NCBI GenBank assembly: GCA_018992685.1
Contig: JACVGT010000011.1
Location: 1-64,000, forward strand
Direction: 5' to 3'
Length of the DNA: 64,000 bases
Source: Theionarchaea archaeon
GTDB lineage: Archaea > Methanobacteriota_B > Thermococci > Methanofastidiosales > SZ-28-30
The position numbers and the translations under genes were made by a program. A model generated the notes under the pieces. That model did no database searches, was not told the DNA's origin, and saw only the letters and a program-made list of their open reading frames with translations. Positions 16,962 to 63,478 of the stretch are shown here, in pieces; within the stretch, counting starts at the first letter, position 1, and each line of letters starts with the position of its first letter.

Positions 16962-16983
16962 GAAACAAAAAAAGAAAAAAGAG
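16962..16983 (-). terminator. Oligo-T terminator downstream of the S8 gene
   Basis: A-tract aaacaaaaaaagaaaaaagag on + strand, which is a T-tract on the - strand just after the stop. Confidence 0.55.
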
Positions 16984-16995
16984 AATCTGCGTTGT

Positions 16996-18546
16996 TTATT
17001 TTCGTAATGCTGTTCCCAGACCAAGGAGCATCAGGAGCAGAACTGTCCCTAGACAGCTTCCACCACATGAGCATCCACAGTCACCATTTGCTGGCGGCGA
17101 TACATTGGGGTTGCTGATAACCTGGGCCACTGCTGCATACGCATCCACGCGGCCCCAGCCCCACAAACAGTCTTTGTTGACATTGCCCTTATCAATAGCT
17201 GTGGCACCCAGACAATTCTTGATTTGTAGGGGGGTTGCCGTTCCTCTTGCATCAAGCATCAGAGCAGCCACTCCTGCGATATGGGGCGCTGCCATTGAAG
17301 AACCAGACATGGCCACATCATTACACGCTGTTCCTGCATCAGCAGCATAGATGGATACACCAGGTGCTGCAATGTCAGGCTTGAATCTCCCGTCAGTGGT
17401 GGGGCCTCTGGAGTTGAAACTGGCCAGTGCGTCCGATTTGTCTGATGCTGTAACAGTAATCACTTTTTCAGCATCGCCAGGTGTGCCAACTGTACAGCAT
17501 GCTCCATCGCCACCAACTACCGCAATCACCACGACACCCTGGTCGACAGCCCAGTTCGACTCCTGCGCTAGAGCAGACGTGCCATCGCCACCTGCGCCTC
17601 CCAGTGACAGATTGATGATGTCAGCTCCATTGTTCACTGCCCAGTCAATCCCTGAGATGATGGTGCTTTCTGAACCACTTCCTGCGCTGGTTAAGACCTT
17701 GCAGCCCATGAGAGAAGCACCAGGGGCTACACCTTTGGCAGTGTACTCACCTGCAGCAATGGATGCACAGTGCGTTCCGTGTCCATTGTCATCGTAGGGT
17801 GTGGTCTGACTGTTGATATAGTCAATCCACGCCACAATCTTCCCCGAGGGGAAGTCACAGTGGTTGGGGTCAATGCCAGTGTCAATGATGCAGATCTTAA
17901 TGCCAGCTCCATTGTACCCCACAGACCAACAATCATCTGCATTGATCAAGGGGACACTCTGGGCCAGGCAGGCATGGACTTCAAGATCATCTTCCAGGAA
18001 CAGGACTCCCGGATCTTCAGCGAGAGGTCCGATATTAGCGACAGGAACTTGCATGGAAGCACCTCTTCCACTCATGAACTGGTGGGTGACTGTCCCATAC
18101 TTTTCCAGGCCGACTGGTGTACCTTCCCTGCACAGAACCAGGATAGTGACCTCTCTTCCGGGGGGCAGCCCCTTGATCTTGTCTTTGAGGTTCCACTTAA
18201 TTCTGGCCACATCATTGGGGACCACAGCCACGTACTCTGTAGGCCCAATTTCGGTGAGATGCTCTTTGGGGACTTTGTAAATTGTGTCAGTAACCTGTAC
18301 TAGAGGAAGCTTTTCAATGTTAATCTCTTTTGAGATTCTGGTCAGAACTCCAGGATTGTAGGCAATCTCAAAGTAATGAGAGTCTTCGTTAACGATTTCA
18401 CCCTTCACTTCCACCAGATCCCGGCCCTCGTACCCAAAAGTCTGTACATGGATAGTGACTGTATGAGACTGTGCGTTCGCAGAAAGTGCTGAAAAAAGAA
18501 GAATACCAATGACAACGCATACTACTACCTTCCGGTTTCTTACCAT
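16996..18546 (-). CDS. Secreted S8 subtilisin-like protease with C-terminal membrane anchor
   Basis: IDTGID, HGTHCAS and SGSSMAAPH. Signal peptide from ATG 18546, after ggaggtga. C-terminal TM helix plus RK. Confidence 0.88.
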   Translation of the reverse strand: MVRNRKVVVCVVIGILLFSALSANAQSHTVTIHVQTFGYEGRDLVEVKGEIVNEDSHYFEIAYNPGVLTRISKEINIEKLPLVQVTDTIYKVPKEHLTEIGPTEYVAVVPNDVARIKWNLKDKIKGLPPGREVTILVLCREGTPVGLEKYGTVTHQFMSGRGASMQVPVANIGPLAEDPGVLFLEDDLEVHACLAQSVPLINADDCWSVGYNGAGIKICIIDTGIDPNHCDFPSGKIVAWIDYINSQTTPYDDNGHGTHCASIAAGEYTAKGVAPGASLMGCKVLTSAGSGSESTIISGIDWAVNNGADIINLSLGGAGGDGTSALAQESNWAVDQGVVVIAVVGGDGACCTVGTPGDAEKVITVTASDKSDALASFNSRGPTTDGRFKPDIAAPGVSIYAADAGTACNDVAMSGSSMAAPHIAGVAALMLDARGTATPLQIKNCLGATAIDKGNVNKDCLWGWGRVDAYAAVAQVISNPNVSPPANGDCGCSCGGSCLGTVLLLMLLGLGTALRK

Positions 18547-51775: not shown

Positions 51776-52063
51776 CATCAAAGGAGAAAACGTGGCGTCA
51801 TGAAAGGCAGTGAATCGACAGCGTAGACTGGAGTCTTGATGCGAGAAAATGAACTCTTTTTTCTAATGAAAGAAAGTACATAACCTGCACTTCAGAAAGA
51901 GTCCACAGACTGAATCATATAGTTGCTTTGGATGTTGCACTCTGTGACATGGGGAGTGGGGGGATTGATTGGGCACGTGACCGTCCTCTGCTGAACAATG
52001 AGGATCTCGCGGTATTCATCGAATAGCAGAAGAATTCTTATAGTCGTACCCGGTATGTACGTC

Positions 52064-54112
52064 ATGAGATCATTAGTCGCGTTTGCCATGATCCTCCTAA
52101 TTTTCTGCGGTTGTGCTGAGCAATCACGTGACGAAGAACCAGTATCCTCAGCCACCCTTCCTGACCGGACATCGGCTGGACCTGTGATTGAAGCACCTTC
52201 TGAAGAACCCGAAGAATTTCTCTTTCCCCTCTCTCCAGAAGACGAAGAAGCCTATTCAAAGGCGCTCCACGATATCGAACAGTACAGAAAAGGAGATGTC
52301 ACCGTAACTGTTGTCAGCAAAGAAGGAACCTCTCTTCCCAATGTGACCGTGGAATACCATCAGGTCAAGCACAGCTTCTTGTTCGGCATCTTCACCCCGT
52401 ACAACCCTGACATATTCCAGTTGATGAAAGAAGCGGGGATCAATTATGTTACCTTCCACTTTAACTGGCAGGCTACAGAACCTCAGGAGAACACATTTGA
52501 CTTTCTTGGATTGGAATATGCTTGGGGTGTGAACCCTCTGTATGATCAGGGATTCACATTGAAGGCTCACGCTCTAACCTGGATGTCAGATGAGGTGACT
52601 CCAGACTACATGAGGAACGTCTCTTTCCAATCATATAAGGAAAAATCCTGCCAGCACATTCATGACATTGTTTCTCATTTTAAAGAACAAATACACATCT
52701 GGAACGTCATCAATGAACCCATGGCAGAGTGGGCAAACATCTACAACCTCTCTGAAGAACAGGTAGAAGAGGCCATTACAACAGGGGTAGAAGCAGTGAG
52801 AAAGGCCGATCCTCAAGGGAGAATCATCATTAACAATGCATCACCTGCAGGTGAAAACCACATTATACCGCCATATGATTTTCTCAGAGATTTAAAAGCA
52901 GATTATGATATTGTTGGTCTTCAGATGTACTATAATGGGTATACCCAGGAATATGAGGCGCCTCGTAGATCTCTTGCATATCTGGCTTCTCTGGTAGATC
53001 AGTTTTCAACACTAGAGAAGGAAATTCACATTACGGAGTTATCTGTTCCGTCTGAACCGGAAAAGGGGAGGAAGGGATACTGGGGATATCCGTGGAGTGA
53101 AGAACTGCAGGCCCAGTATGCACAGGTGGCCTACACATTATTCTTTTCGAAGAAGGAAGTGAAGGCTGTGACCTGGTGGGACGCATCTGATGCTGCATGT
53201 TTCATGTACCATGGGGGGTTGCTGGATGAGAATAACAATCCGAAAAGAATCTACTACGCGGTAAAAACCTTGATTCAATCGTGGACAACCCGTGGAACGC
53301 AGGTGACAGATGTCAATGGGAATATTGCATTCAGAGGGTTTGGCGGCCTCTATGAAGTGAAAATCAATGATGATGAGACAGGGCTGGTGTATGAGGGGAT
53401 GTTTGAGGTGAACGAACAGAACGTGAATGATATTTTGATCGTGATTGATCCTGAAACACTACAGAAAGAACAAGATCTGAAAAGACAGCAGACAATCGAG
53501 GAATTGAACAGGGTGGTCACAGACATCAAATGGCTCTTGGACTACTGGAAGAATCAAGGAAAAGACGTGACGACTCAGGAGAGGGAATTAGAAGATGTTC
53601 TGATCCTGGAACCAGAGGAAGCTCTTGAAGAGGCAGTAGCTCTCCGACTACAGGTTGCGATTGAAAGGGAATCAGTACACAGCTGGGAGACGTTCGAAAA
53701 CACGAATAAATCTCTTTTTGATCTTTCATGGGCTGATTCTGGAGTCTTACTGACAAGTGGGGCTCTATACAAACCAATATCATTAAAGAAAGGGAGGATT
53801 GCAGTGAGAATCTTGGCCAAAGGTGATGAAGGTGGAGGTGCCTTCCCATTCTTTTTTGTTATGGCAGGAAGTTCTGTGTCGGATGTTATCCGCATTACCA
53901 GTTCTCAATGGCAGTGGTATGAAATCGTACTGGACACAAATGGAGCAGAGGACATTGCACTCATCTTCACCAATGACTATTACGACCCAAGAACAGGAGA
54001 AGATCGGAACCTGTATATTCAGGAGGTAATCATCACTGAATATCTCTATTCTGATTGGTCATCCTTATCATACTTGAAAGGAGGCCCCAGTCTCTATCAC
54101 TTTGCTCATTAG
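52064..54112 (+). CDS. GH10 (endo-xylanase-like) glycoside hydrolase lipoprotein with C-terminal beta-sandwich domain
   Basis: Lipobox-like IFCGC, KAHALTW, WNVINEP and HITEL catalytic motifs, FRGFGG.Y, and a C-terminal FTND...DRNL. Confidence 0.8.
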   Translation: MRSLVAFAMILLIFCGCAEQSRDEEPVSSATLPDRTSAGPVIEAPSEEPEEFLFPLSPEDEEAYSKALHDIEQYRKGDVTVTVVSKEGTSLPNVTVEYHQVKHSFLFGIFTPYNPDIFQLMKEAGINYVTFHFNWQATEPQENTFDFLGLEYAWGVNPLYDQGFTLKAHALTWMSDEVTPDYMRNVSFQSYKEKSCQHIHDIVSHFKEQIHIWNVINEPMAEWANIYNLSEEQVEEAITTGVEAVRKADPQGRIIINNASPAGENHIIPPYDFLRDLKADYDIVGLQMYYNGYTQEYEAPRRSLAYLASLVDQFSTLEKEIHITELSVPSEPEKGRKGYWGYPWSEELQAQYAQVAYTLFFSKKEVKAVTWWDASDAACFMYHGGLLDENNNPKRIYYAVKTLIQSWTTRGTQVTDVNGNIAFRGFGGLYEVKINDDETGLVYEGMFEVNEQNVNDILIVIDPETLQKEQDLKRQQTIEELNRVVTDIKWLLDYWKNQGKDVTTQERELEDVLILEPEEALEEAVALRLQVAIERESVHSWETFENTNKSLFDLSWADSGVLLTSGALYKPISLKKGRIAVRILAKGDEGGGAFPFFFVMAGSSVSDVIRITSSQWQWYEIVLDTNGAEDIALIFTNDYYDPRTGEDRNLYIQEVIITEYLYSDWSSLSYLKGGPSLYHFAH

Positions 54113-55806: not shown

Positions 55807-56544
55807 CTACATGATACGCTCTTTCATGTCGAAAAGCAGTCCTTCCTTACCAATGCGGTAACCCACATTCTTTGTGTTATAAACCATTTTCTTGAACTTG
55901 TAAATATTCATGAACAGCTCTGTAAAGTGATGGCCTACCACCTTCCGTGAGAAATGGACCACATTGTCTGCCAGGTAGAGCAGTGCAGTCTCCACTTTGG
56001 GATCGTGCATTCCGTCCACCAGGATGAATACGTAGGAACCTCCATATCGCTTGGCCATCATGCGCATACGATCAAAGAATTCACACACCATGTCGGGGCT
56101 GTTGTTCTGCAGGATGAAAGACAAAGAATCCACCACACACCTGCATTCTCCACGGGTCTTCTTGATCTGATCAAATAAGGCATGTTCTATCTGGTCCATG
56201 GCTGTGAGATCGTGCGCAAAGATCTTGAAAGGTGCGATTTTCTCGTCCGTATACTCCCTGTAGCGGGGGGTGAATGCATCAATGAAATGCAGTGTCCTGT
56301 TGTAGTACATGTTGACATCCCATCCAAAGAAGGTGATGTCCTCCAGAATGTCCTCTGGAGCTTGGTTACTGGTAAAGTAGACTCCTTCACCCCCATCTTT
56401 TAATCCACGGTACAGTATGCTCCAGGCTACCACTTCAGCTCCGCTTCCTGGATGGGAGTGCAGTATCGTTGTAGTTCTGTCGGGAATGCCGCCACCAACC
56501 AAAATGTCTAGGTCCTGACTACCCGTGCTGTAGACCTTCACCAT
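55807..56544 (-). CDS. KaiC/RAD55-like protein with degenerate Walker A
   Basis: STGSQDLD and VVDSLS. Walker A reads HPGSGAE, so the catalytic Lys is lost. Confidence 0.8.
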   Translation of the reverse strand: MVKVYSTGSQDLDILVGGGIPDRTTTILHSHPGSGAEVVAWSILYRGLKDGGEGVYFTSNQAPEDILEDITFFGWDVNMYYNRTLHFIDAFTPRYREYTDEKIAPFKIFAHDLTAMDQIEHALFDQIKKTRGECRCVVDSLSFILQNNSPDMVCEFFDRMRMMAKRYGGSYVFILVDGMHDPKVETALLYLADNVVHFSRKVVGHHFTELFMNIYKFKKMVYNTKNVGYRIGKEGLLFDMKERIM

Positions 56545-56972
56545 GGGTAGTACTATAGCGCGTCGCTCTTAAAAGGTTTGCTTTACAATCGATTTCAGAA
56601 TGCACAGGATGAGCGCTATTCCGCAGGTATGAGGTGGGCTGCCATGGTCTCGTCTGAAAGACTTTCTGCCCCTTTTACGGATTCACAGAGGTTCGTGTGC
56701 ATATTTTTACGGTTCTCTCGTTGCCTCTCTTTTCCTGAATCCGCACCTGGGACAGCAGAAGCTTTCATTTGCCAGAAAGATCAGATATCCCACCACAATG
56801 TTCAAAACCAACAATGAAAGCCAGGAGAGTATGCCTTTAATCTACCGTGAGAATTTGTATGTTCTTATGGCTATTGCATCATGTTATTCTCTGTTTTTTT
56901 CACCTCTGGCAAGGTGGTTAGGTTAATGACCTAAATGTAAGCTCAAGAAAGACTCTGGTATAACGATACTAT

Positions 56973-56988
56973 CGAAACATTTATAAAT
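56973..56988 (+). promoter_or_regulatory. BRE/TATA promoter of the putative RiPP precursor
   Basis: cgaaaca-tttataaat about 45 nt upstream of ATG 57029. RBS caggaggtg at 57014-57022. Confidence 0.7.
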
Positions 56989-57028
56989 AAGAAAGAGAAT
57001 AATAGCAAAACTACAGGAGGTGCGAACC

Positions 57029-57127
57029 ATGAAGTTTAACGTAAGGAAGTTGGAGACCGTCTCAACTACTGTTGCTGCAGCAGATGACGTGGTCCCTTGG
57101 AAAGAAGCCAAGCTGCAGTGCCTGTAA
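57029..57127 (+). CDS. Putative RiPP precursor peptide, 32 aa (MKFNVRKLETVSTTVAAADDVVPWKEAKLQCL); absent from the ORF track
   Basis: Strong RBS ggaggtg, its own TATA box and a downstream T-tract. It lies directly upstream of three RRE-rSAM/SPASM genes. Confidence 0.85.
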   Translation: MKFNVRKLETVSTTVAAADDVVPWKEAKLQCL

Positions 57128-57151
57128 TCTTTCCAAAAGGGATCTAGAAAG

Positions 57152-57181
57152 TTTTCTTTGACTTTTTTGTTTTTTTTCTTT
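57152..57181 (+). terminator. Oligo-T terminator/attenuator after the precursor
   Basis: ttttctttgacttttttgttttttttcttt between the precursor stop and the rSAM1 start. Confidence 0.65.
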
Positions 57182-57210
57182 GCCACATTGATGGTTATCC
57201 GGTGTGAAAA

Positions 57211-58551
57211 ATGCCTTACCTGCGAATAATCAAGACCTCAGTGATCAGAACGATTCCTCTGGGAGTGTACCTATGTGTCCCTCACGGGTTTGCGTCTGAA
57301 GCATACTATCCTGTGATGGAAGTTGACGAATCCATAAAAGAGGTTCTCACCCTCTGTGACGGGACACGAACTCGAGAGGATATCCTCAGTCACCTTGCTG
57401 CAGAAACTGGAGAATCTGTGGAGGAGGTGGCGGAAGGATTTGACCAGTTTGTGGAATACATGGTACAGGAGGGTGTACTGGAATGGAGAGAAGAACCGTC
57501 TCCTCTTGAGCCTCTTTACTTGAAGAATAGACCACTGGGGATTATCATGGAGATAACGTCCGACTGCAACCTGCAGTGCCCAATGTGTTATGCTGATTCA
57601 GGAACTGGGCACTCGTGCGATCTAGCGCTGGATGATGTGACCGCCATTGTTGAGGCATCTAAGAAAATGAGGTCAACGTCTCTCGTTATCACTGGAGGCG
57701 AGCCCCTCCTCCGGAAAGACCTGGTGATCTACATGCTGAAAGAGCTCTCCCCCGTAGAGACAGTGGACGTGGCTCTCTTTACAAATGGTACGCTCGTTAC
57801 CAGTGAATATGCACGAGACCTGTATGATGCAGGGCTAAGGCACGCTATTGTCAGTGTGGACGGACACACAGCAGAACTGAACGACAAAATACGAGGTCAT
57901 GGGGCTTTTGAGAAGACAATTCAAGGTATTCATTATCTCAGAGAACGTGGTATTCAAGTCAATGTTGTAACTACGATTTCTCAGACCAATTATCCATATA
58001 TGAAAGAGATCAGAGAGTTTACCTCCCAAATCGGAGACGGCAGCGGCTTGATCCCTGTTTCTCCTTTTGGAAGAGCTGCCCCGGAAATTCTCTTGACTCC
58101 AGAAGGAGTGTTCAGTGTCATGATGGCAAATCTTCCTCCTGGAGAACTTGAAATCAGTATCCCCCCTCGTGATAGATGCAATGTGGGACAGAGTGTTTAC
58201 ATTAGAGCTAACGGAGACGTCTTTCCCTGTGTGAATATGCAGATCCCTGAATTCAGGATGGGGAATATTCGAGAGGAAGATTTCTGGGAAATGTATCAAT
58301 CAGATCTGGTACGAAACCTCTTGCAACTGACAGTCAAGGACTTTGAGCAGTGCAGAGACTGTGATATTCGCTATTACTGCGGAGGCTCGTGTAGAGGGTT
58401 TGCTTACAAACTGAATGGCTCGTTGTACCTTCCAGACCCCTGGAATTGCGGGGCAAATAAGAAACTGACTGAAGAGATTTTGAAAAATGGTGGAGAGACT
58501 ACCAAGAAAGGACTCCGAGAGCTGCTAAAATCCACCAAGGAGTTACTATGA
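57211..58551 (+). CDS. Radical SAM/SPASM peptide maturase 1 with N-terminal PqqD-like RRE
   Basis: LCDGTRT..I (PqqD-like), CNLQCPMC and TGGEP. SPASM: C..G...GDVFPC...CRDC...CGGSC...C. Confidence 0.92.
   Translation: MPYLRIIKTSVIRTIPLGVYLCVPHGFASEAYYPVMEVDESIKEVLTLCDGTRTREDILSHLAAETGESVEEVAEGFDQFVEYMVQEGVLEWREEPSPLEPLYLKNRPLGIIMEITSDCNLQCPMCYADSGTGHSCDLALDDVTAIVEASKKMRSTSLVITGGEPLLRKDLVIYMLKELSPVETVDVALFTNGTLVTSEYARDLYDAGLRHAIVSVDGHTAELNDKIRGHGAFEKTIQGIHYLRERGIQVNVVTTISQTNYPYMKEIREFTSQIGDGSGLIPVSPFGRAAPEILLTPEGVFSVMMANLPPGELEISIPPRDRCNVGQSVYIRANGDVFPCVNMQIPEFRMGNIREEDFWEMYQSDLVRNLLQLTVKDFEQCRDCDIRYYCGGSCRGFAYKLNGSLYLPDPWNCGANKKLTEEILKNGGETTKKGLRELLKSTKELL
57331..57519 (+). repeat. Copy 1 of 189-nt near-identical RRE-coding segment
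   Basis: Matches 58837-59025 with about 9 mismatches and no gaps (manual alignment). Confidence 0.9.
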
Positions 58552-58716
58552 GGAAGAGATTTTTCATCATACCAGTCTGGTGAGAGATGAAGCCATCCGA
58601 GAGAAAGAGCCGAAAATAATAGACCTGTCCCGTTTCTTGGGAGTCCATGGAATTCCAGTGTATATTCCTGACTTTCTTCTTGGAATATAGGCTGGAACAT
58701 GTGCGGAGGTGATGAA

Positions 58717-60063
58717 ATGCAATATCTAAGAGTGACAAAGACACCAATCGTCAGAAGAATGCCGCTGGGAACATATGCATGTTTCCCTTCAGGGTTTCAA
58801 CTTGAATCCTTCTATCCAATAATGGAAATCGACGGATCCATAGAAGAGGTTCTCACCCTCTGTGATGGAACACGAACTCGAGAGGATATCCTCAACCACC
58901 TTGCTGCAGAAAGTGGAGAATCTGTGGAGGAGGTGGCGGAAGGATTTGACCAGTTTGTGGAGTACATGGTACAGGAGGGTGTACTGGAATGGAGAGAAGA
59001 ACCGTCTCTTGTTGAGCCTCTTTACAGAGAGAACAGACCCTTCAGTATCACCATAGACATTACATCAGCGTGCAACCTTCAATGTGACTTCTGTTCGGCT
59101 GATTCAGGGGCCCCACGGGGTGATGATCTGACAATGGAACATATCGACCCTCTTCTTGAGCAGGTGAAAAAGTGCAAACCCACGCCTTTTGCCATAAGCG
59201 GCGGAGAGCCCCTTCTCAAGAAGGAAATGGTACTCCACATTTTGGAAGAACTTGCTTCCATTAGAGAAACTGCTGTGACCATTTTTACTAACGCGACCCT
59301 GGTGAATAGAGATTATGCTCAACAGCTTTATGATGCAGGACTGAGATATGCACGAGTCAGTGTGGACGGGCACACAGCACAGGTGCACGATGCAATACGA
59401 GGAAAGGGAACGTTCCAGAAGACGACTCAGGGAATACAGTATCTGAGAGAGCTTGGCATTCACGTCAATACCGTGTCTGTGATTTCCAAGACGAACTATC
59501 AGTATCTGGGTGAGATCAGACACTTTGTTAATCACATTGCAGACAGCTATGGTCTTGCTGTTGTGCAGGAGTATGGAAGGGGTGCAGAGTCTGGGCACCT
59601 GCTTCTCAGTGAAGAAGAACGGTTCAATGTTAATATGTCCAATCTCAGAACAGAAAACATTCAGACGAATGTCAGCCCTCGAGACAGATGCAACGTAGGA
59701 GAGACCATCTACATCAGAGCCAATGGAGATATCTTTCCGTGCTTCTATCTTCAGTTCCCCGAATTCAGAGTGGGTAATATTAAGGAGAACGATCTCTTTG
59801 AAATCTACGAACACAAGATCATGAAGGACCTGTTGAAAATGACTGTTGCAGATATCGAGGAATGCCGGGAGTGCGAGATCCGGTACTACTGTGGAGGCGC
59901 ATGCAGAGGGTTTGCGTATCTGGAGCACAGCTCAGTTCACGTTCCAGATCCTCTGAACTGTGAAAAGAACAAAACGATCGTTCGCATGATTCTGGAAAAG
60001 GGTGAGGAGAATACGAAGCAACTGCTCAGAGAAGTGTTGGATTCAACTTCAGCACTGGGATAG
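58717..60063 (+). CDS. Radical SAM/SPASM peptide maturase 2 with N-terminal RRE
   Basis: CNLQCDFC and SGGEP. SPASM: DRC...GDIFPC...CREC...CGGAC...C. Start moved to ATG 58717, after ggaggtga. Confidence 0.92.
   Translation: MQYLRVTKTPIVRRMPLGTYACFPSGFQLESFYPIMEIDGSIEEVLTLCDGTRTREDILNHLAAESGESVEEVAEGFDQFVEYMVQEGVLEWREEPSLVEPLYRENRPFSITIDITSACNLQCDFCSADSGAPRGDDLTMEHIDPLLEQVKKCKPTPFAISGGEPLLKKEMVLHILEELASIRETAVTIFTNATLVNRDYAQQLYDAGLRYARVSVDGHTAQVHDAIRGKGTFQKTTQGIQYLRELGIHVNTVSVISKTNYQYLGEIRHFVNHIADSYGLAVVQEYGRGAESGHLLLSEEERFNVNMSNLRTENIQTNVSPRDRCNVGETIYIRANGDIFPCFYLQFPEFRVGNIKENDLFEIYEHKIMKDLLKMTVADIEECRECEIRYYCGGACRGFAYLEHSSVHVPDPLNCEKNKTIVRMILEKGEENTKQLLREVLDSTSALG
58837..59025 (+). repeat. 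Copy 2 of 189-nt near-identical RRE-coding segment
   Basis: Matches 57331-57519. Confidence 0.9.
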
Positions 60064-60105
60064 TTCTCTTTATTGCAGCAGTATCCATGGATCGAAGGGA
60101 GGGAC

Positions 60106-61461
60106 ATGAAGATGGATCATGTGAAGAAGCAATATCCTCGGGCTGTCCACCAGGTTGTCATCAGGCATACACGTGTTGGAGACTTCTTGATGTCAGGTGA
60201 CAGCTTGCTTGAAATGGATGGTCCGTCTCTTGAGGTAGTGAACTTGTGTGACGGTTGTCATACTGTCCAGGACATAGCAGAATGGGCAGCCAGAGAAGCA
60301 GACGAGCCTGTGGAAGAGGCGTATGAAGGGCTGATCCAGTTTCTGGACATGCTTTCAGGAGAAGGTGTCATTGTCTATAAGGATTCTCCAGACCCTTTCA
60401 ACCCTGTCTATTGCTATGATAGGCCGCTCTCTGTGATCTGGGAGATTACGTATGCATGCAATCAGCGGTGCAGGTACTGTATTGCTCAGGCTGGTACCCC
60501 TGATCCTGATGAACTCTCCCCACAGGAAATAGACAGAGTGCTGGACGAGCTGGTGGAACTTGGAATTGGGTTGATCAACATAACAGGAGGAGAGCCCCTA
60601 CTGAAAATGGATACTGCCCTTCACATAGCAAGGAGGGCCTCGGAGAATGGCATTGATCTCGAGCTGTTGACCAATGGAATGTTGATAACTTCCGACGTGG
60701 CTCAGAATATCTATGATGCAGGCATCCGGCATGCTCAGGTCAGTCTGGACTGTGTACGGCCAGAGGTTCATGATAACCAGAGGGGGGTGAAAGGTGCCTG
60801 GAAGAAAACTGTGAGTGGTATCCGAAACTTGAGAGATGCAGGAGTCAATGTCATGGCAGCGGCAGTCATGACCAGTGAAAACTTACAGTACTTTGAAGAG
60901 ACAAAGCAGTTTCTCAGGGAGATAGCTAATGTCGTCAAGATGGGTTCTGTTTTGCCAATGGGGCGGGGGGAGAACAGTATTTTTCTGCTCCCTCCTGAGG
61001 ACTATCTCACCTTTCTTAAATTGAGGAATACTGAAGAAGCCACGCTCACAGACTTCATTTTCTGCAGAGAGAAATGTTCTATAGGTACAACGCCTGTGAT
61101 TTCGCCACGGGGAGATGTGTATCCCTGCATGTTGACGAAATACGATGAACTGAAACTGGGAAATGTGAGGGATACGTCCATACACGCTATTTATGAGAAT
61201 TCTGATTTGCTTCAGGAGCTTTTCGACTGGAATGTGGACAAGGTAGATGCCTGCCATTCTTGTTGGAATCGCTACTACTGTGGAGGAGGGTGCAGGGGGT
61301 GCGCATTCGCATACCACGGGACTATTTATGGAAATGATCCATATCAATGTGCTGCCCGGAAGAAATTCGCTCGAGAGCTTCTTGTACGGGGAGATCCAGA
61401 AACTCGAAAAGCACTGAAACATCTAATCTTTTTAGCTAAGCATGACTCTGGTAGAGGATAA
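60106..61461 (+). CDS. Radical SAM/SPASM peptide maturase 3 with N-terminal RRE
   Basis: LCDGCHTV.DI, WEITYACNQRCRYC and TGGEP. SPASM: C..G...GDVYPC...CHSC...CGGGC...C. ATG 60106 follows gggagg. Confidence 0.92.
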   Translation: MKMDHVKKQYPRAVHQVVIRHTRVGDFLMSGDSLLEMDGPSLEVVNLCDGCHTVQDIAEWAAREADEPVEEAYEGLIQFLDMLSGEGVIVYKDSPDPFNPVYCYDRPLSVIWEITYACNQRCRYCIAQAGTPDPDELSPQEIDRVLDELVELGIGLINITGGEPLLKMDTALHIARRASENGIDLELLTNGMLITSDVAQNIYDAGIRHAQVSLDCVRPEVHDNQRGVKGAWKKTVSGIRNLRDAGVNVMAAAVMTSENLQYFEETKQFLREIANVVKMGSVLPMGRGENSIFLLPPEDYLTFLKLRNTEEATLTDFIFCREKCSIGTTPVISPRGDVYPCMLTKYDELKLGNVRDTSIHAIYENSDLLQELFDWNVDKVDACHSCWNRYYCGGGCRGCAFAYHGTIYGNDPYQCAARKKFARELLVRGDPETRKALKHLIFLAKHDSGRG

Positions 61462-61463
61462 CC

Positions 61464-62705
61464 ATGGCTGATTATGATATAACGGATGAGAGTGTAGTCA
61501 AATTCCATGACTTATTCAGAGGTGAAGAGGACGAATCCATCACCGTAGGAAGGCAGGATATCGGGAAGTATGTCAGTCTCCCCAGAGATGCTGTGGAGGT
61601 CATCGATCTCCTGGATTCAGGACAGAAGGTTGGGGAAGTCAAAAGAGTCCTGAAGGACAAATATGGAGAAGACGTGGAAATCGAAGAGTTCATTGAAGAC
61701 ATGATTAAGAACGAAATGGTGAGGTCAATAGATGGATTCGAGATGGTCACGACGTCAAAACTACAAAAAGACCTTTTCAGTAGAGTAACTGCTCGCCATG
61801 TGGGGTGGATGTTCTCGAAGGTAGCATGGGTCATGTATATTGGCATGGCTATCTCATGTCTCATCATTTTTGCCCTTATTCCTGATTATATTCCATCTCC
61901 ACGTGATTATTTCTTCCATCCGTTGTATTCTGTGGCTGTTGGCTTCATGTTTTTCCTTGGATGGATTTTTGTGGCTATTCACGAACTGGCGCATTTGTTT
62001 GCGGCAAAATCTGTGGGAATTGAAGGGAATTTCAGTTTGAGCAATCGGTTGATCTTCATCGTGGCGCAGACAAACCTGGGCAATATCTGGACCATCCCGC
62101 GCAGAAGACGATTTGTCATCTATCTTGCCGGCATGGCGTGGGATTCAACATTGGTATTCATCTGTCTAGTACTGCTCTTCTTGTCTGATCATGGAGTGAT
62201 AACGCTCTCAGTCCTCTTGTACAAGTTCGTGAAAGCAGTGATTTTTGCCAAGGTGTGGACAATAATCTGGCAGTTTAGATTCAACATGCAGACCGATATC
62301 TACTACTCCATTGCCAACTACTTCAGGTGCCGAAATTTATTGGGCGATGCTCAGACCTACATAAAGAATTACAGTTCCAGATTCTATTCCCGAATAAAAG
62401 AGGCCGACATGAGCGGCATACCGGGAGATGAAATGAGAGTAATCAAGTGGTATGCTCTTCTCTACTTCGTTGGCACATCCATAACATTGGCCAGCTACTT
62501 TCTGAGAAATTTGCCCCTTGTCCTGCTCCAGATAATGAAAGCATTTGATGGACTCGTGATAGGCTACTCAGCAAGCCATGCAGATTTCACTGACGCAGTG
62601 GTGCTCATAGTCTTGAATGCCTTCAGATACGGACTCTTAGGATTCGTTATTTTGAGACCAAGATGGAATTGGCTGAAGGAGCGGTTTGCGGGTGCAAGAG
62701 CTTGA
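61464..62705 (+). CDS. RRE/PqqD-like domain fused to M50-type (site-2-protease-like) membrane metallopeptidase
   Basis: Soluble N-terminal domain (IDLLDSG..V.EV...FIEDM..NEMV) followed by TM helices with HELAH, YLAG and FNMQTDIY. Confidence 0.8.
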   Translation: MADYDITDESVVKFHDLFRGEEDESITVGRQDIGKYVSLPRDAVEVIDLLDSGQKVGEVKRVLKDKYGEDVEIEEFIEDMIKNEMVRSIDGFEMVTTSKLQKDLFSRVTARHVGWMFSKVAWVMYIGMAISCLIIFALIPDYIPSPRDYFFHPLYSVAVGFMFFLGWIFVAIHELAHLFAAKSVGIEGNFSLSNRLIFIVAQTNLGNIWTIPRRRRFVIYLAGMAWDSTLVFICLVLLFLSDHGVITLSVLLYKFVKAVIFAKVWTIIWQFRFNMQTDIYYSIANYFRCRNLLGDAQTYIKNYSSRFYSRIKEADMSGIPGDEMRVIKWYALLYFVGTSITLASYFLRNLPLVLLQIMKAFDGLVIGYSASHADFTDAVVLIVLNAFRYGLLGFVILRPRWNWLKERFAGARA

Positions 62706-62980
62706 AAATCTATACTGCTTTGCCAATACCGGCATTTATATCTTCTTTCGGTCACTGGGTGAGCATAGGTTCTTGATGAGCCTGAAAGCTTGACTCTCAT
62801 TCGATGTTAATCTTCGAGAGGTTCCGCACAAGAAGGAGTGGAATCCTGCTGTCTGCGAGGTGACGCTGTGAAATCTCTGGAATATTCAACCTTTTTGCGT
62901 ATTCCTAATCAGGTCAAGTGTCCAGCAATTAAACCCAAATGCTTATAAGTAGATTGTAGTTTCCTAGAACTGAGTAATAG

Positions 62981-63478
62981 GTGACTCCCATGAATAGCAG
63001 GCTATTAACCTACATTGCAGTGTTCGGCGCACTGGGCGCTGCCCTTGGATGGATTTCCATTCCAGTAGGACCAACCAAAGTGTTTCCGCTGCAGCATACC
63101 ATAAACGCTGTATCCGGAATACTGATGGGACCGTGGGCTGTCATATCTTCTCTCATTGCAGCCACTGTCAGATTCTCAACCGGAACAGGGAGTATCTATG
63201 CATTCCCTGGAAGCCCTTTTGGGGCTTTGGTAGTCTCCTTGTTGTACAGACTTACAAAGAAAGATCTAGCAGCTCTGACTGAACCCTTGGGAACTGTGGG
63301 GATTGGTGCAACCCTGAGTGCGTTACTCATCGCTCCTTTCATCACAGAGAGTGCGCCCACTCTTTGGTTCTTTTGGACTGCCTTTGCAGCAAGCTGCATT
63401 CCCGGAGCTGTCCTGGGCTACTTCATCCTGAAAATTCTGAGGAGGTCGAATGTGGAGCTTTACAGACCTGGAGAATAA
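62981..63478 (+). CDS. thiW: ECF transporter S-component, ThiW (thiazole) type
   Basis: KVFPLQHTIN, GTGS.YAFPGS.FGA, EPLGT.GIGA and FAAS..PGA. Confidence 0.88.
   Translation: MTPMNSRLLTYIAVFGALGAALGWISIPVGPTKVFPLQHTINAVSGILMGPWAVISSLIAATVRFSTGTGSIYAFPGSPFGALVVSLLYRLTKKDLAALTEPLGTVGIGATLSALLIAPFITESAPTLWFFWTAFAASCIPGAVLGYFILKILRRSNVELYRPGE

Follow-up and report, generated by a model that had tools for sequence, protein, structure and literature searches.

How can two genes that have diverged until their synonymous sites are saturated still share a segment of nearly identical DNA? The question is raised by a group of peptide maturation genes in a 64,000-nt stretch of DNA from Theionarchaea archaeon (GCA_018992685.1, contig JACVGT010000011.1, positions 1-64,000, forward strand), called the window in what follows. 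Two paralogous genes of this group, r1 (57211..58551, + strand) and r2 (58699..60063, + strand), encode radical SAM-SPASM enzymes whose N-terminal PqqD domain (PF05402) is the recognition element (RRE) of maturases for peptides that are made on the ribosome and modified after translation (RiPPs). The shared segment lies in this domain: copy A, at 57331..57519 (+), covers codons 41-103 of r1, and copy B, at 58837..59025 (+), lies in r2. The answer that we develop is that the segment is a gene conversion tract in RRE DNA and, probably, one episode in a prolonged concerted evolution of this domain, common to the archaeal RiPP family in question.

The two copies align without gaps over 189 columns with 9 mismatches (180/189 = 95.2%), which is exactly the match that the original prediction had described. 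The longest exact run common to both is 48 nt, and megablast extends the pair to 57316-57519 versus 58822-59025 (204 nt, 94.1%). A blastn search of the whole genome, a 3.03-Mb assembly in 45 contigs with 91% completeness, labeled G0 or G000, finds these two copies only: the next best match, G000:C19, is 72.7% identical over 77 nt. The tract sits inside a long blastn alignment of r1 and r2 that is 69.5% identical overall, and the identity of this alignment varies with position. Nucleotide identity is 65% in codons 1-40, 95% in the tract, and 61% from codon 104 to the end; in the same three segments, third-position identity is 0.54, 0.94 and 0.42. The N-terminal strands and the catalytic barrels had been described as more divergent than the tract, as these figures show them to be, and the two strings quoted in illustration, GIIMEITSDCNLQCPMC and SITIDITSACNLQCDFC, are present in the translations.

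The identity was also said to include most synonymous sites. It does: 59/63 third positions are identical in the tract versus 43.6% outside (binomial P 3e-17). With the method of Nei and Gojobori (NG86), the synonymous distance (dS) of the tract is 0.099 and its non-synonymous distance (dN) is 0.035, corresponding to 4 synonymous changes in 43 sites and to 5 non-synonymous ones. In the rest of the genes, the proportion of synonymous differences (pS) is 0.716, a saturated value with dS >2, and dN is 0.365. Neither identity nor dS is uniform along the genes.

The limits of the tract can be located in several ways. The maximal-scoring segment is 57330-57519, with a score of 60.5 that is reached in 0/10,000 shuffles of the codon columns (best 20.6), and again in 0/10,000 when third positions alone are considered; the maximum chi-square segment is 57325-57519. 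The right edge is abrupt, at 57519/59025, and the 40 codons upstream are divergent, so that the tract is an internal patch of the two genes. Its mismatches are concentrated at the edges: the outer 94 nt contain 8 of them and the inner 95 nt a single one (Fisher P 0.018, computed post hoc). They produce the amino acid differences K43E, S60N, T66S, P98L and L99V, and codons 67-97, which encode the third helix and the last strand, contain one synonymous change only. Gene conversion as the explanation of the r1/r2 tract is strongly supported.

The direction of the copying may have left a faint trace. Amino acid identity to other members of the family is 0.58-0.60 for the tract, 0.58-0.62 for the flanks in r2 and 0.49-0.51 for the flanks in r1, values that hint at r2 as the possible donor, with a signal no larger than the variation seen among other pairs (difference of 0.04 on average, sd 0.07). 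Separately, GC-biased conversion was considered and discarded: the GC content of the tract, overall or at third codon positions (GC3), has no consistent difference from the rest of the genes.

Could the identity have been kept since the duplication, with no recombination at all? Selection acting on nucleotides, through an RNA element or an overlapping gene, might have this effect, and open reading frames (ORFs) of 49-64 amino acids in alternative frames do overlap both copies, with no support beyond being open. However, the tract is only 58-63% identical, in nucleotides, to the homologous segment of the family members G0_C19, G1_a and G2_b, which is too little for an ultraconserved nucleotide element, and a scan of 56400-62900 against Rfam (E<=1) gave no match. 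A second form of this explanation is the fusion, in r1, of a freshly duplicated RRE to a catalytic domain of greater age. The 40 upstream codons, which are divergent and have an intermediate pS (0.55 vs 0.74), are not what a simple fusion at the N-terminus would leave. We find both forms very unlikely. The original prediction spoke of gene conversion or domain swapping: the dS contrast and the internal patch retain the first, and the second, understood as a fusion, fits these same 40 codons less well.

Since the sequence is a metagenome-assembled one, the shared segment might also be the product of a chimeric or collapsed contig, and the fragmentation and completeness of the assembly lend some credit to this idea. 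We compared the region with Logan contigs, not with raw reads. A 1541-nt contig of run X9, from an independent study, spans 57060-58599 and thereby includes copy A and the flanks on its two sides. At copy B, contigs of run X1, a possible source sample (58979-60200), and of run X9 (58989-59438) cover the right junction, and no contig covers the left one; the uncovered parts, such as 58758-58988, are no evidence of absence. Contig pieces of X1 and X6 end inside the tract, at 57476-57502, and start again at 58979. Such breaks could be read as a sign of artefact, but they are the expected product of a true two-copy repeat, which breaks contigs that are built from k-mers. Moreover, the copies differ at 9 sites, hence both exist as distinct sequences, and codon-aligned tracts of the same kind are found in four other independently assembled loci. 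An assembly artefact is unlikely on these contigs and, with everything taken together, we consider it very improbable.

What, then, does the tract encode? The protein r1 has 446 amino acids; r2 opens at 58699, and the ATG that is consistent with the family, at 58717, gives it 448. Pfam finds in r1 the domains PqqD (29.5 bits, residues 36-90, for a curated cut-off of 23.4 bits), Radical_SAM (81.7) and SPASM (44.5), and in r2 the same domains with 25.9, 84.2 and 38.7 bits, all of them above cut-off. An RRE is a winged-helix-like fold, in which a small beta-sheet is followed by three helices. An AlphaFold2 model of r1, computed from an 18-sequence alignment with a mean predicted confidence (pLDDT) of 86.6, has this arrangement: strands at residues 3-6, 11-15, 18-24 and 32-37, helices at 40-48, 55-66 and 70-86, a strand at 90-93, and the barrel from residue 110, with pLDDT mostly 77-92 in the RRE region. 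The tract thus extends over all three helices, the strand that follows them and the linker to the barrel, and the homogenised segment does lie in the RRE domain, as had been proposed.

The pair r1/r2 is not the only one of its kind. Strong matches (E<=1e-60) were obtained in the genome itself and in 2/2 other genomes of the same genus, and in 0/38 of the others, for a total of 41 genomes searched (this one and 40 relatives). A scan of metagenomes gave 69 loci, nine of which (L022-L030) encode close relatives, with 49-54% identity, the rest being distant or partial. Among all these, two enzyme genes A and B stand in tandem in five clusters: the window, genome G002 (where gene A is split over L094 and L018), L025, L026 and L027. 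We searched the corresponding pairs, labeled G0, G2, L25, L26 and L27, with sliding windows and a maximal-segment scan, taking as threshold the best of 100 codon shuffles for each pair and numbering codons as in r1.

A significant tract was found within codons 35-103 in 5/5 pairs. It covers codons 40-103 in G0 (190 nt, 95.3%), 35-96 in L27 (183 nt, 97.3%), 83-102 in G2 (59 nt, 96.6%) and 48-66 in L25 (56 nt, 96.4%). The L26 pair (L026:4404-7140) is a mosaic, with a tract from codon 48 to codon 247 (599 nt, 93%) and a second one at codons 350-393 (129 nt, 99.2%), when codons 1-47, codons 248-349 and the C-terminus are divergent; these unconverted blocks may mark regions of specificity. As controls, the comparisons of r1 or r2 with the unlinked paralogue G0_C19, and of G2_aC with G2_b in the catalytic part, have no tract. 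In genome G001, the first 36 nt of contig C120 (L020:3-38, codons 81-92), which belong to a paralogue, are 100% identical to the cluster enzyme of contig C133 (L017), and the divergence is immediate afterwards; contig C120 ends at that very spot, as a repeat would cause it to do. This looks like a sixth tract, an RRE conversion between clusters.

The contrast between domains is visible in the raw identities. Within a genome, genes A and B share 0.78-0.94 of their nucleotides in the RRE versus 0.63-0.66 in the catalytic part; between genomes, orthologues share 0.64-0.82 in the RRE and 0.66-0.86 in the catalytic part.

Since different parts of these genes seem to have different histories, we built two trees: one from the RRE DNA (codons 38-103, 20 rows), the other from the catalytic protein (residues 110-440, 21 rows). 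Loci L022, L024, L028 and L030 were left out as apparent duplicates of L023, L025, G2_b and L029, a decision based on the identity of their N- and C-terminal strings. In the RRE tree, the paralogues of one genome come together, with supports of 100/97 for G2, 98/95 for L26, 93/97 for L27 and 82/35 for G0, L25 being unresolved; this tree also joins G1_a to G0_C19 (91/94). The catalytic tree, on the other hand, has an A clade of G2, L25 and L27 (100/99) and a B clade (99/100).

Approximately unbiased (AU) tests measure this conflict. For the catalytic part, a sister relation of A and B is rejected in L27 (1.8e-6), L25 (2.8e-76) and G2 (1.7e-6), and so is the grouping of G1_a in one clade with G0_C19 and G1_C120p (6e-5). 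For the RRE, the clade of A orthologues (8.7e-9) and the clade of B orthologues (7.6e-6) are both rejected; the pairs L25_A+L27_A (0.06) and L25_B+L27_B (0.19) are not. The separate trees that the original prediction called for are therefore in conflict for G2, L25 and L27, and no such conflict is seen for the two remaining pairs. The catalytic tree joins r1 and r2 of the window as sisters with weak support (57/83), r1 having a long branch (0.66), and it joins the L26 genes with strong support (100/99). In both cases, the argument thus stands on the dS contrast.

Is there a reason for two enzymes to keep the same recognition element? In each cluster whose upstream DNA could be read, a conserved small gene is found directly 5' of the enzyme gene that comes first. 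In the window, it is a small ORF at 57029..57127 (+), 84 nt 5' of r1, with an alternative GTG start at 57020, and it encodes a predicted precursor peptide of 32 amino acids, MKFNVRKLETVSTTVAAADDVVPWKEAKLQCL. Its relatives are in L017, L019, L023, L025-L027, L029 and L094. An alignment of 12 such peptides has the invariant residues M1, K2, F3, K7, E9, T13 and T14 and an invariant C-terminal P-W-x-E-x-K-x-Q-C, separated by a variable middle, so that the general form is MKFxVKKVExVATT, followed by 5-12 variable residues, and then by PWKExKxQCL; the assignment of the leader to the N- or C-terminal part can only be conjectured from this layout. A profile search of 1.84 billion representatives yields 31 clusters of sequences of 29-65 amino acids with the same layout, and no model of Pfam or NCBIfam matches the family.

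Locus L023 holds three copies of the precursor gene, and G001:C133 has a second copy 3' of its r3 gene, but the five tandem clusters have one precursor gene each beside the enzymes. It is because of this single gene that r1 and r2 can be supposed to act on a common substrate. The idea of a shared peptide substrate, which originally leaned on the tract, thus gains support that is independent of it. A complex prediction with the RRE of r1 (residues 1-108) and the precursor has a score of 0.29 versus a mark of 0.32, and counts neither way.

These observations can be assembled in the following scenario. The helical part of the RRE, around codons 40-103 of r1, would have been copied non-reciprocally, by homologous recombination, between two tandem genes about 1.5 kb apart, a long time after r1 and r2 had diverged to synonymous saturation. 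In each tandem pair examined, the RRE region is homogenised within the genome, when the catalytic parts of A and B keep their orthologous lineages in three of the five. Conversions would survive in the RRE, where both enzymes presumably perform the same task of docking on the leader of the single upstream precursor, and those that overwrite the specialised regions of catalysis or substrate positioning would be purged by selection. The pairs, two of which are marginal, lend support to a concerted evolution of the RRE that is recurrent; the functional rationale, a selection for a shared leader, is no more than plausible.

Several points weigh against this scenario, or against parts of it. Two of the five tracts, those of G2 and L25, are short and marginal, with scores of 11.4 versus a shuffle maximum of 9.6 and 14.1 versus 10.8, and the target identity of 95% was chosen after G0 had been seen. 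In the same manner, the groups submitted to AU tests were named only after the trees had been seen, and in those trees r1 and r2, with the long branch of r1, and the strong sisters of L26 do not behave as the other pairs do. Conversion in L26 reaches much of the radical SAM core, hence its confinement to the RRE is not a strict one. In copy B, the contigs leave the left junction bare. The leader is so conserved across lineages that a test of its co-evolution with the RRE has nothing to work on. Finally, against the idea of a positive selection for identity, the same cluster contains a divergent RRE in the third maturase, r3 (about 50% of nucleotides), and a probable one in its peptidase, and near-identity is thus not needed for the enzymes of one cluster.

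This last point separates two versions of the functional rationale. The original prediction held that conversion keeps both enzymes docked on the same leader; its gene conversion reading is strongly supported, but the docking clause is conjectural, given the PqqD domain of r3, which is 49-50% identical in nucleotides to those of r1 and r2 in the tract region (about 45% at the protein level). Conversion might be merely tolerated in the regions where the two paralogues have a common role and purged from those in which they are specialised, and such a filter fits the data equally well. The behavior of L26, whose conversion enters the radical SAM core but spares codons 248-349 and the C-terminus, is consistent with a filter. 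The stronger claim, that RRE-restricted concerted evolution is a selected and general device of multi-enzyme RiPP clusters, one that would synchronize the docking modules of several catalysts for one leader, is a possibility about which we are rather doubtful.

It is also conceivable that the conversion is real and its location meaningless. Conversion depends on sequence identity between copies: a first event, placed by chance, could have created an island of identity that reinforced itself through later events, the rest of the genes drifting out of reach. Nested repeated events would give the accumulation of mismatches at the edges of the tract (8/94 outer vs 1/95 inner), and the intermediate pS of the first 40 codons, as well as the absence of any conversion in r3, whose identity is only about 50%, go in the same direction. 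However, the same domain is homogenised in 5/5 pairs, and according to the RRE tree the events in G0, G2, L26 and L27 were separate ones. The blocks spared in L26, codons 248-349 and the C-terminus, and the amino acid divergence of the G0 pair, which also peaks at codons 261-320 (proportion of non-synonymous differences, pN, 0.40-0.50), together suggest a selective filter over pure mechanics. We judge a purely mechanical island to be unlikely, and retain the concerted evolution of the RRE, driven by gene conversion, as the best explanation.

We now turn to the rest of the cluster. On the + strand, the genes for the precursor, r1, r2, r3 and a membrane protein with an HExxH motif follow each other in the same direction from 57029 to 62705. 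The third maturase, r3 (60073..61461, + strand, with a likely ATG near 60106), also has an RRE, a radical SAM and a SPASM domain, with Pfam scores of 30.5 bits for PqqD, 107.8 for Radical_SAM and 38.9 for SPASM, all above cut-off. It is more distant, with 37% amino acid identity to r1 versus 58% for r2, and it is not converted. The three cysteines of the CxxxCxxC motif, C119, C123 and C126, together with seven downstream cysteines, are invariant in 18 sequences. The motif, the SPASM domain and the adjacent precursor are those of radical SAM-SPASM RiPP maturases, and it is as such that r1, r2 and r3 are predicted to act. Their subfamily is another matter: none of the NCBIfam subfamily models, among them StsB (sactipeptide), WgkB (Trp-Lys link), mycofactocin MftC, PapB and AlbA, reaches its cut-off for any of the three, the best scores being 137.9 versus 625 with StsB for r1, 136.7 versus 650 with WgkB for r2, and 156.8 versus 265 with an MftC-type model for r3.

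The last gene of the cluster (61464..62705, + strand) encodes the HExxH membrane protein, which weakly resembles M50 peptidases (Pfam Peptidase_M50, E 4e-4, below cut-off) and is a candidate leader peptidase. Its first 100 amino acids (61464-61763) match PqqD with an E-value of 0.0047 and 17.7 bits, versus the cut-off of 23.4, and an hhalign comparison with the RRE of the radical SAM enzymes gives an E-value of 3.7e-4 and a probability of 36%. This N-terminus may thus be a fourth RRE-like domain of the cluster, fused to the candidate peptidase. The peptidase gene is kept at the end of the cluster in L018, L019, L020, L022, L023, L026, L029 and L030, the copies of L023, L026 and L030 having been located by tblastn. 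A KaiC-like ATPase gene (55807-56544) and a ThiW gene (62981-63478) flank the cluster and, further upstream, 51998-54112 encodes a protein of 704 amino acids with glycoside hydrolase family 10 and CBM60 (xylan-binding) domains.

Relatives of the cluster come in other architectures than the tandem A and B. One enzyme is accompanied by a peptidase in G000:C19 and G001:C120; A is accompanied by r3 in G001:C133 and L029/L030; and L022/L023 combine r3, precursors, A and a peptidase. Literature searches under Theionarchaea with radical SAM, and under archaeal RiPP with SPASM, returned nothing on this archaeal family, as judged from the search listings. On the basis of their genes, these clusters document what would be an undescribed family of archaeal RiPPs.

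The genome has many other radical SAM genes. When it is searched with r1, 44 radical SAM matches are obtained, many of them in tandem sets, which is an unusually large putative complement of peptide maturases. When 26 regions containing these other genes (80,787 nt) were scanned for tracts, the only matches besides r1/r2 were on contigs C10 and C1. The first is a match of 71 nt at 86% between G000:C10:15566-15636 and 16962-17032, at the N-termini of two tandem radical SAM genes of a different subfamily (493 and 491 amino acids); the second is a 41-nt direct repeat, 95% identical, between G000:C1:310169-310209 and 310574-310614, which adjoins another radical SAM gene and might correspond to tandem small genes. 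A radical SAM/SPASM homologue at G000:C17:14841-15569 has one TAG in frame, so that a broken gene, a pair of genes and a read-through codon are all conceivable.

If the pattern seen in the five tandem clusters is general, it would be a way for one leader to stay compatible with several paralogous enzymes as their chemistry diverges. An island of conversion in the RRE would then be a genomic marker, readable from sequence only, of two enzymes that share a substrate. Conversely, the regions that resist conversion, around codons 248-349 and at the C-terminus, would mark the determinants of specificity, which could be useful in the engineering of maturases by RRE swapping.

How do these enzymes and their tract compare with known systems? 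In a Foldseek search with the model of r1, the best matches are CteB, SkfB, SuiB and anSME. Like CteB (5WHY/5WGG), SuiB (5V1Q/S/T) and SkfB (6EFN), to whose structures the E-values range from 5e-16 to 6e-14, the enzymes of the window have an N-terminal PqqD-like RRE, a radical SAM barrel and a SPASM domain, and a precursor gene is adjacent. Unlike them, they form a set of three paralogues in one archaeal cluster, with a putative chemistry, an identity to the matched proteins of only 16-22%, and no corresponding NCBIfam subfamily.

Concerted evolution by gene conversion makes the paralogues of one genome more alike than orthologues of different genomes, and it homogenises synonymous sites. Here, unlike in the general case, it would act on one module of about 190 nt, recurrently across lineages, and in three of the five pairs the rest of the genes still follows a phylogeny of the orthologue type. 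Gene conversion within clusters of modular polyketide synthases (PKS) and nonribosomal peptide synthetases (NRPS) has reportedly been treated by Zucko et al. 2012 and Nivina et al. 2021, which a review cites on this subject. In that review, of 2026 (PMC13500794), intra-cluster conversion between homologous domains is discussed under modular PKS/NRPS, and the passages on RiPPs name the RRE without conversion. As the review's PKS/NRPS passages describe, the process in the window would be a non-reciprocal copying of domain segments within one cluster that leaves islands of near-identity in diverged paralogues (PMC13500794); unlike there, what is converted is the RRE with which stand-alone RiPP maturases dock on the leader, and each enzyme keeps its catalytic identity. 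In full-text literature searches, no paper came up that describes RREs as subject to gene conversion or concerted evolution. Such a process is, in itself, well known; what appears to be new is its restriction to, and its recurrence at, the module by which RiPP maturases dock on their leader.

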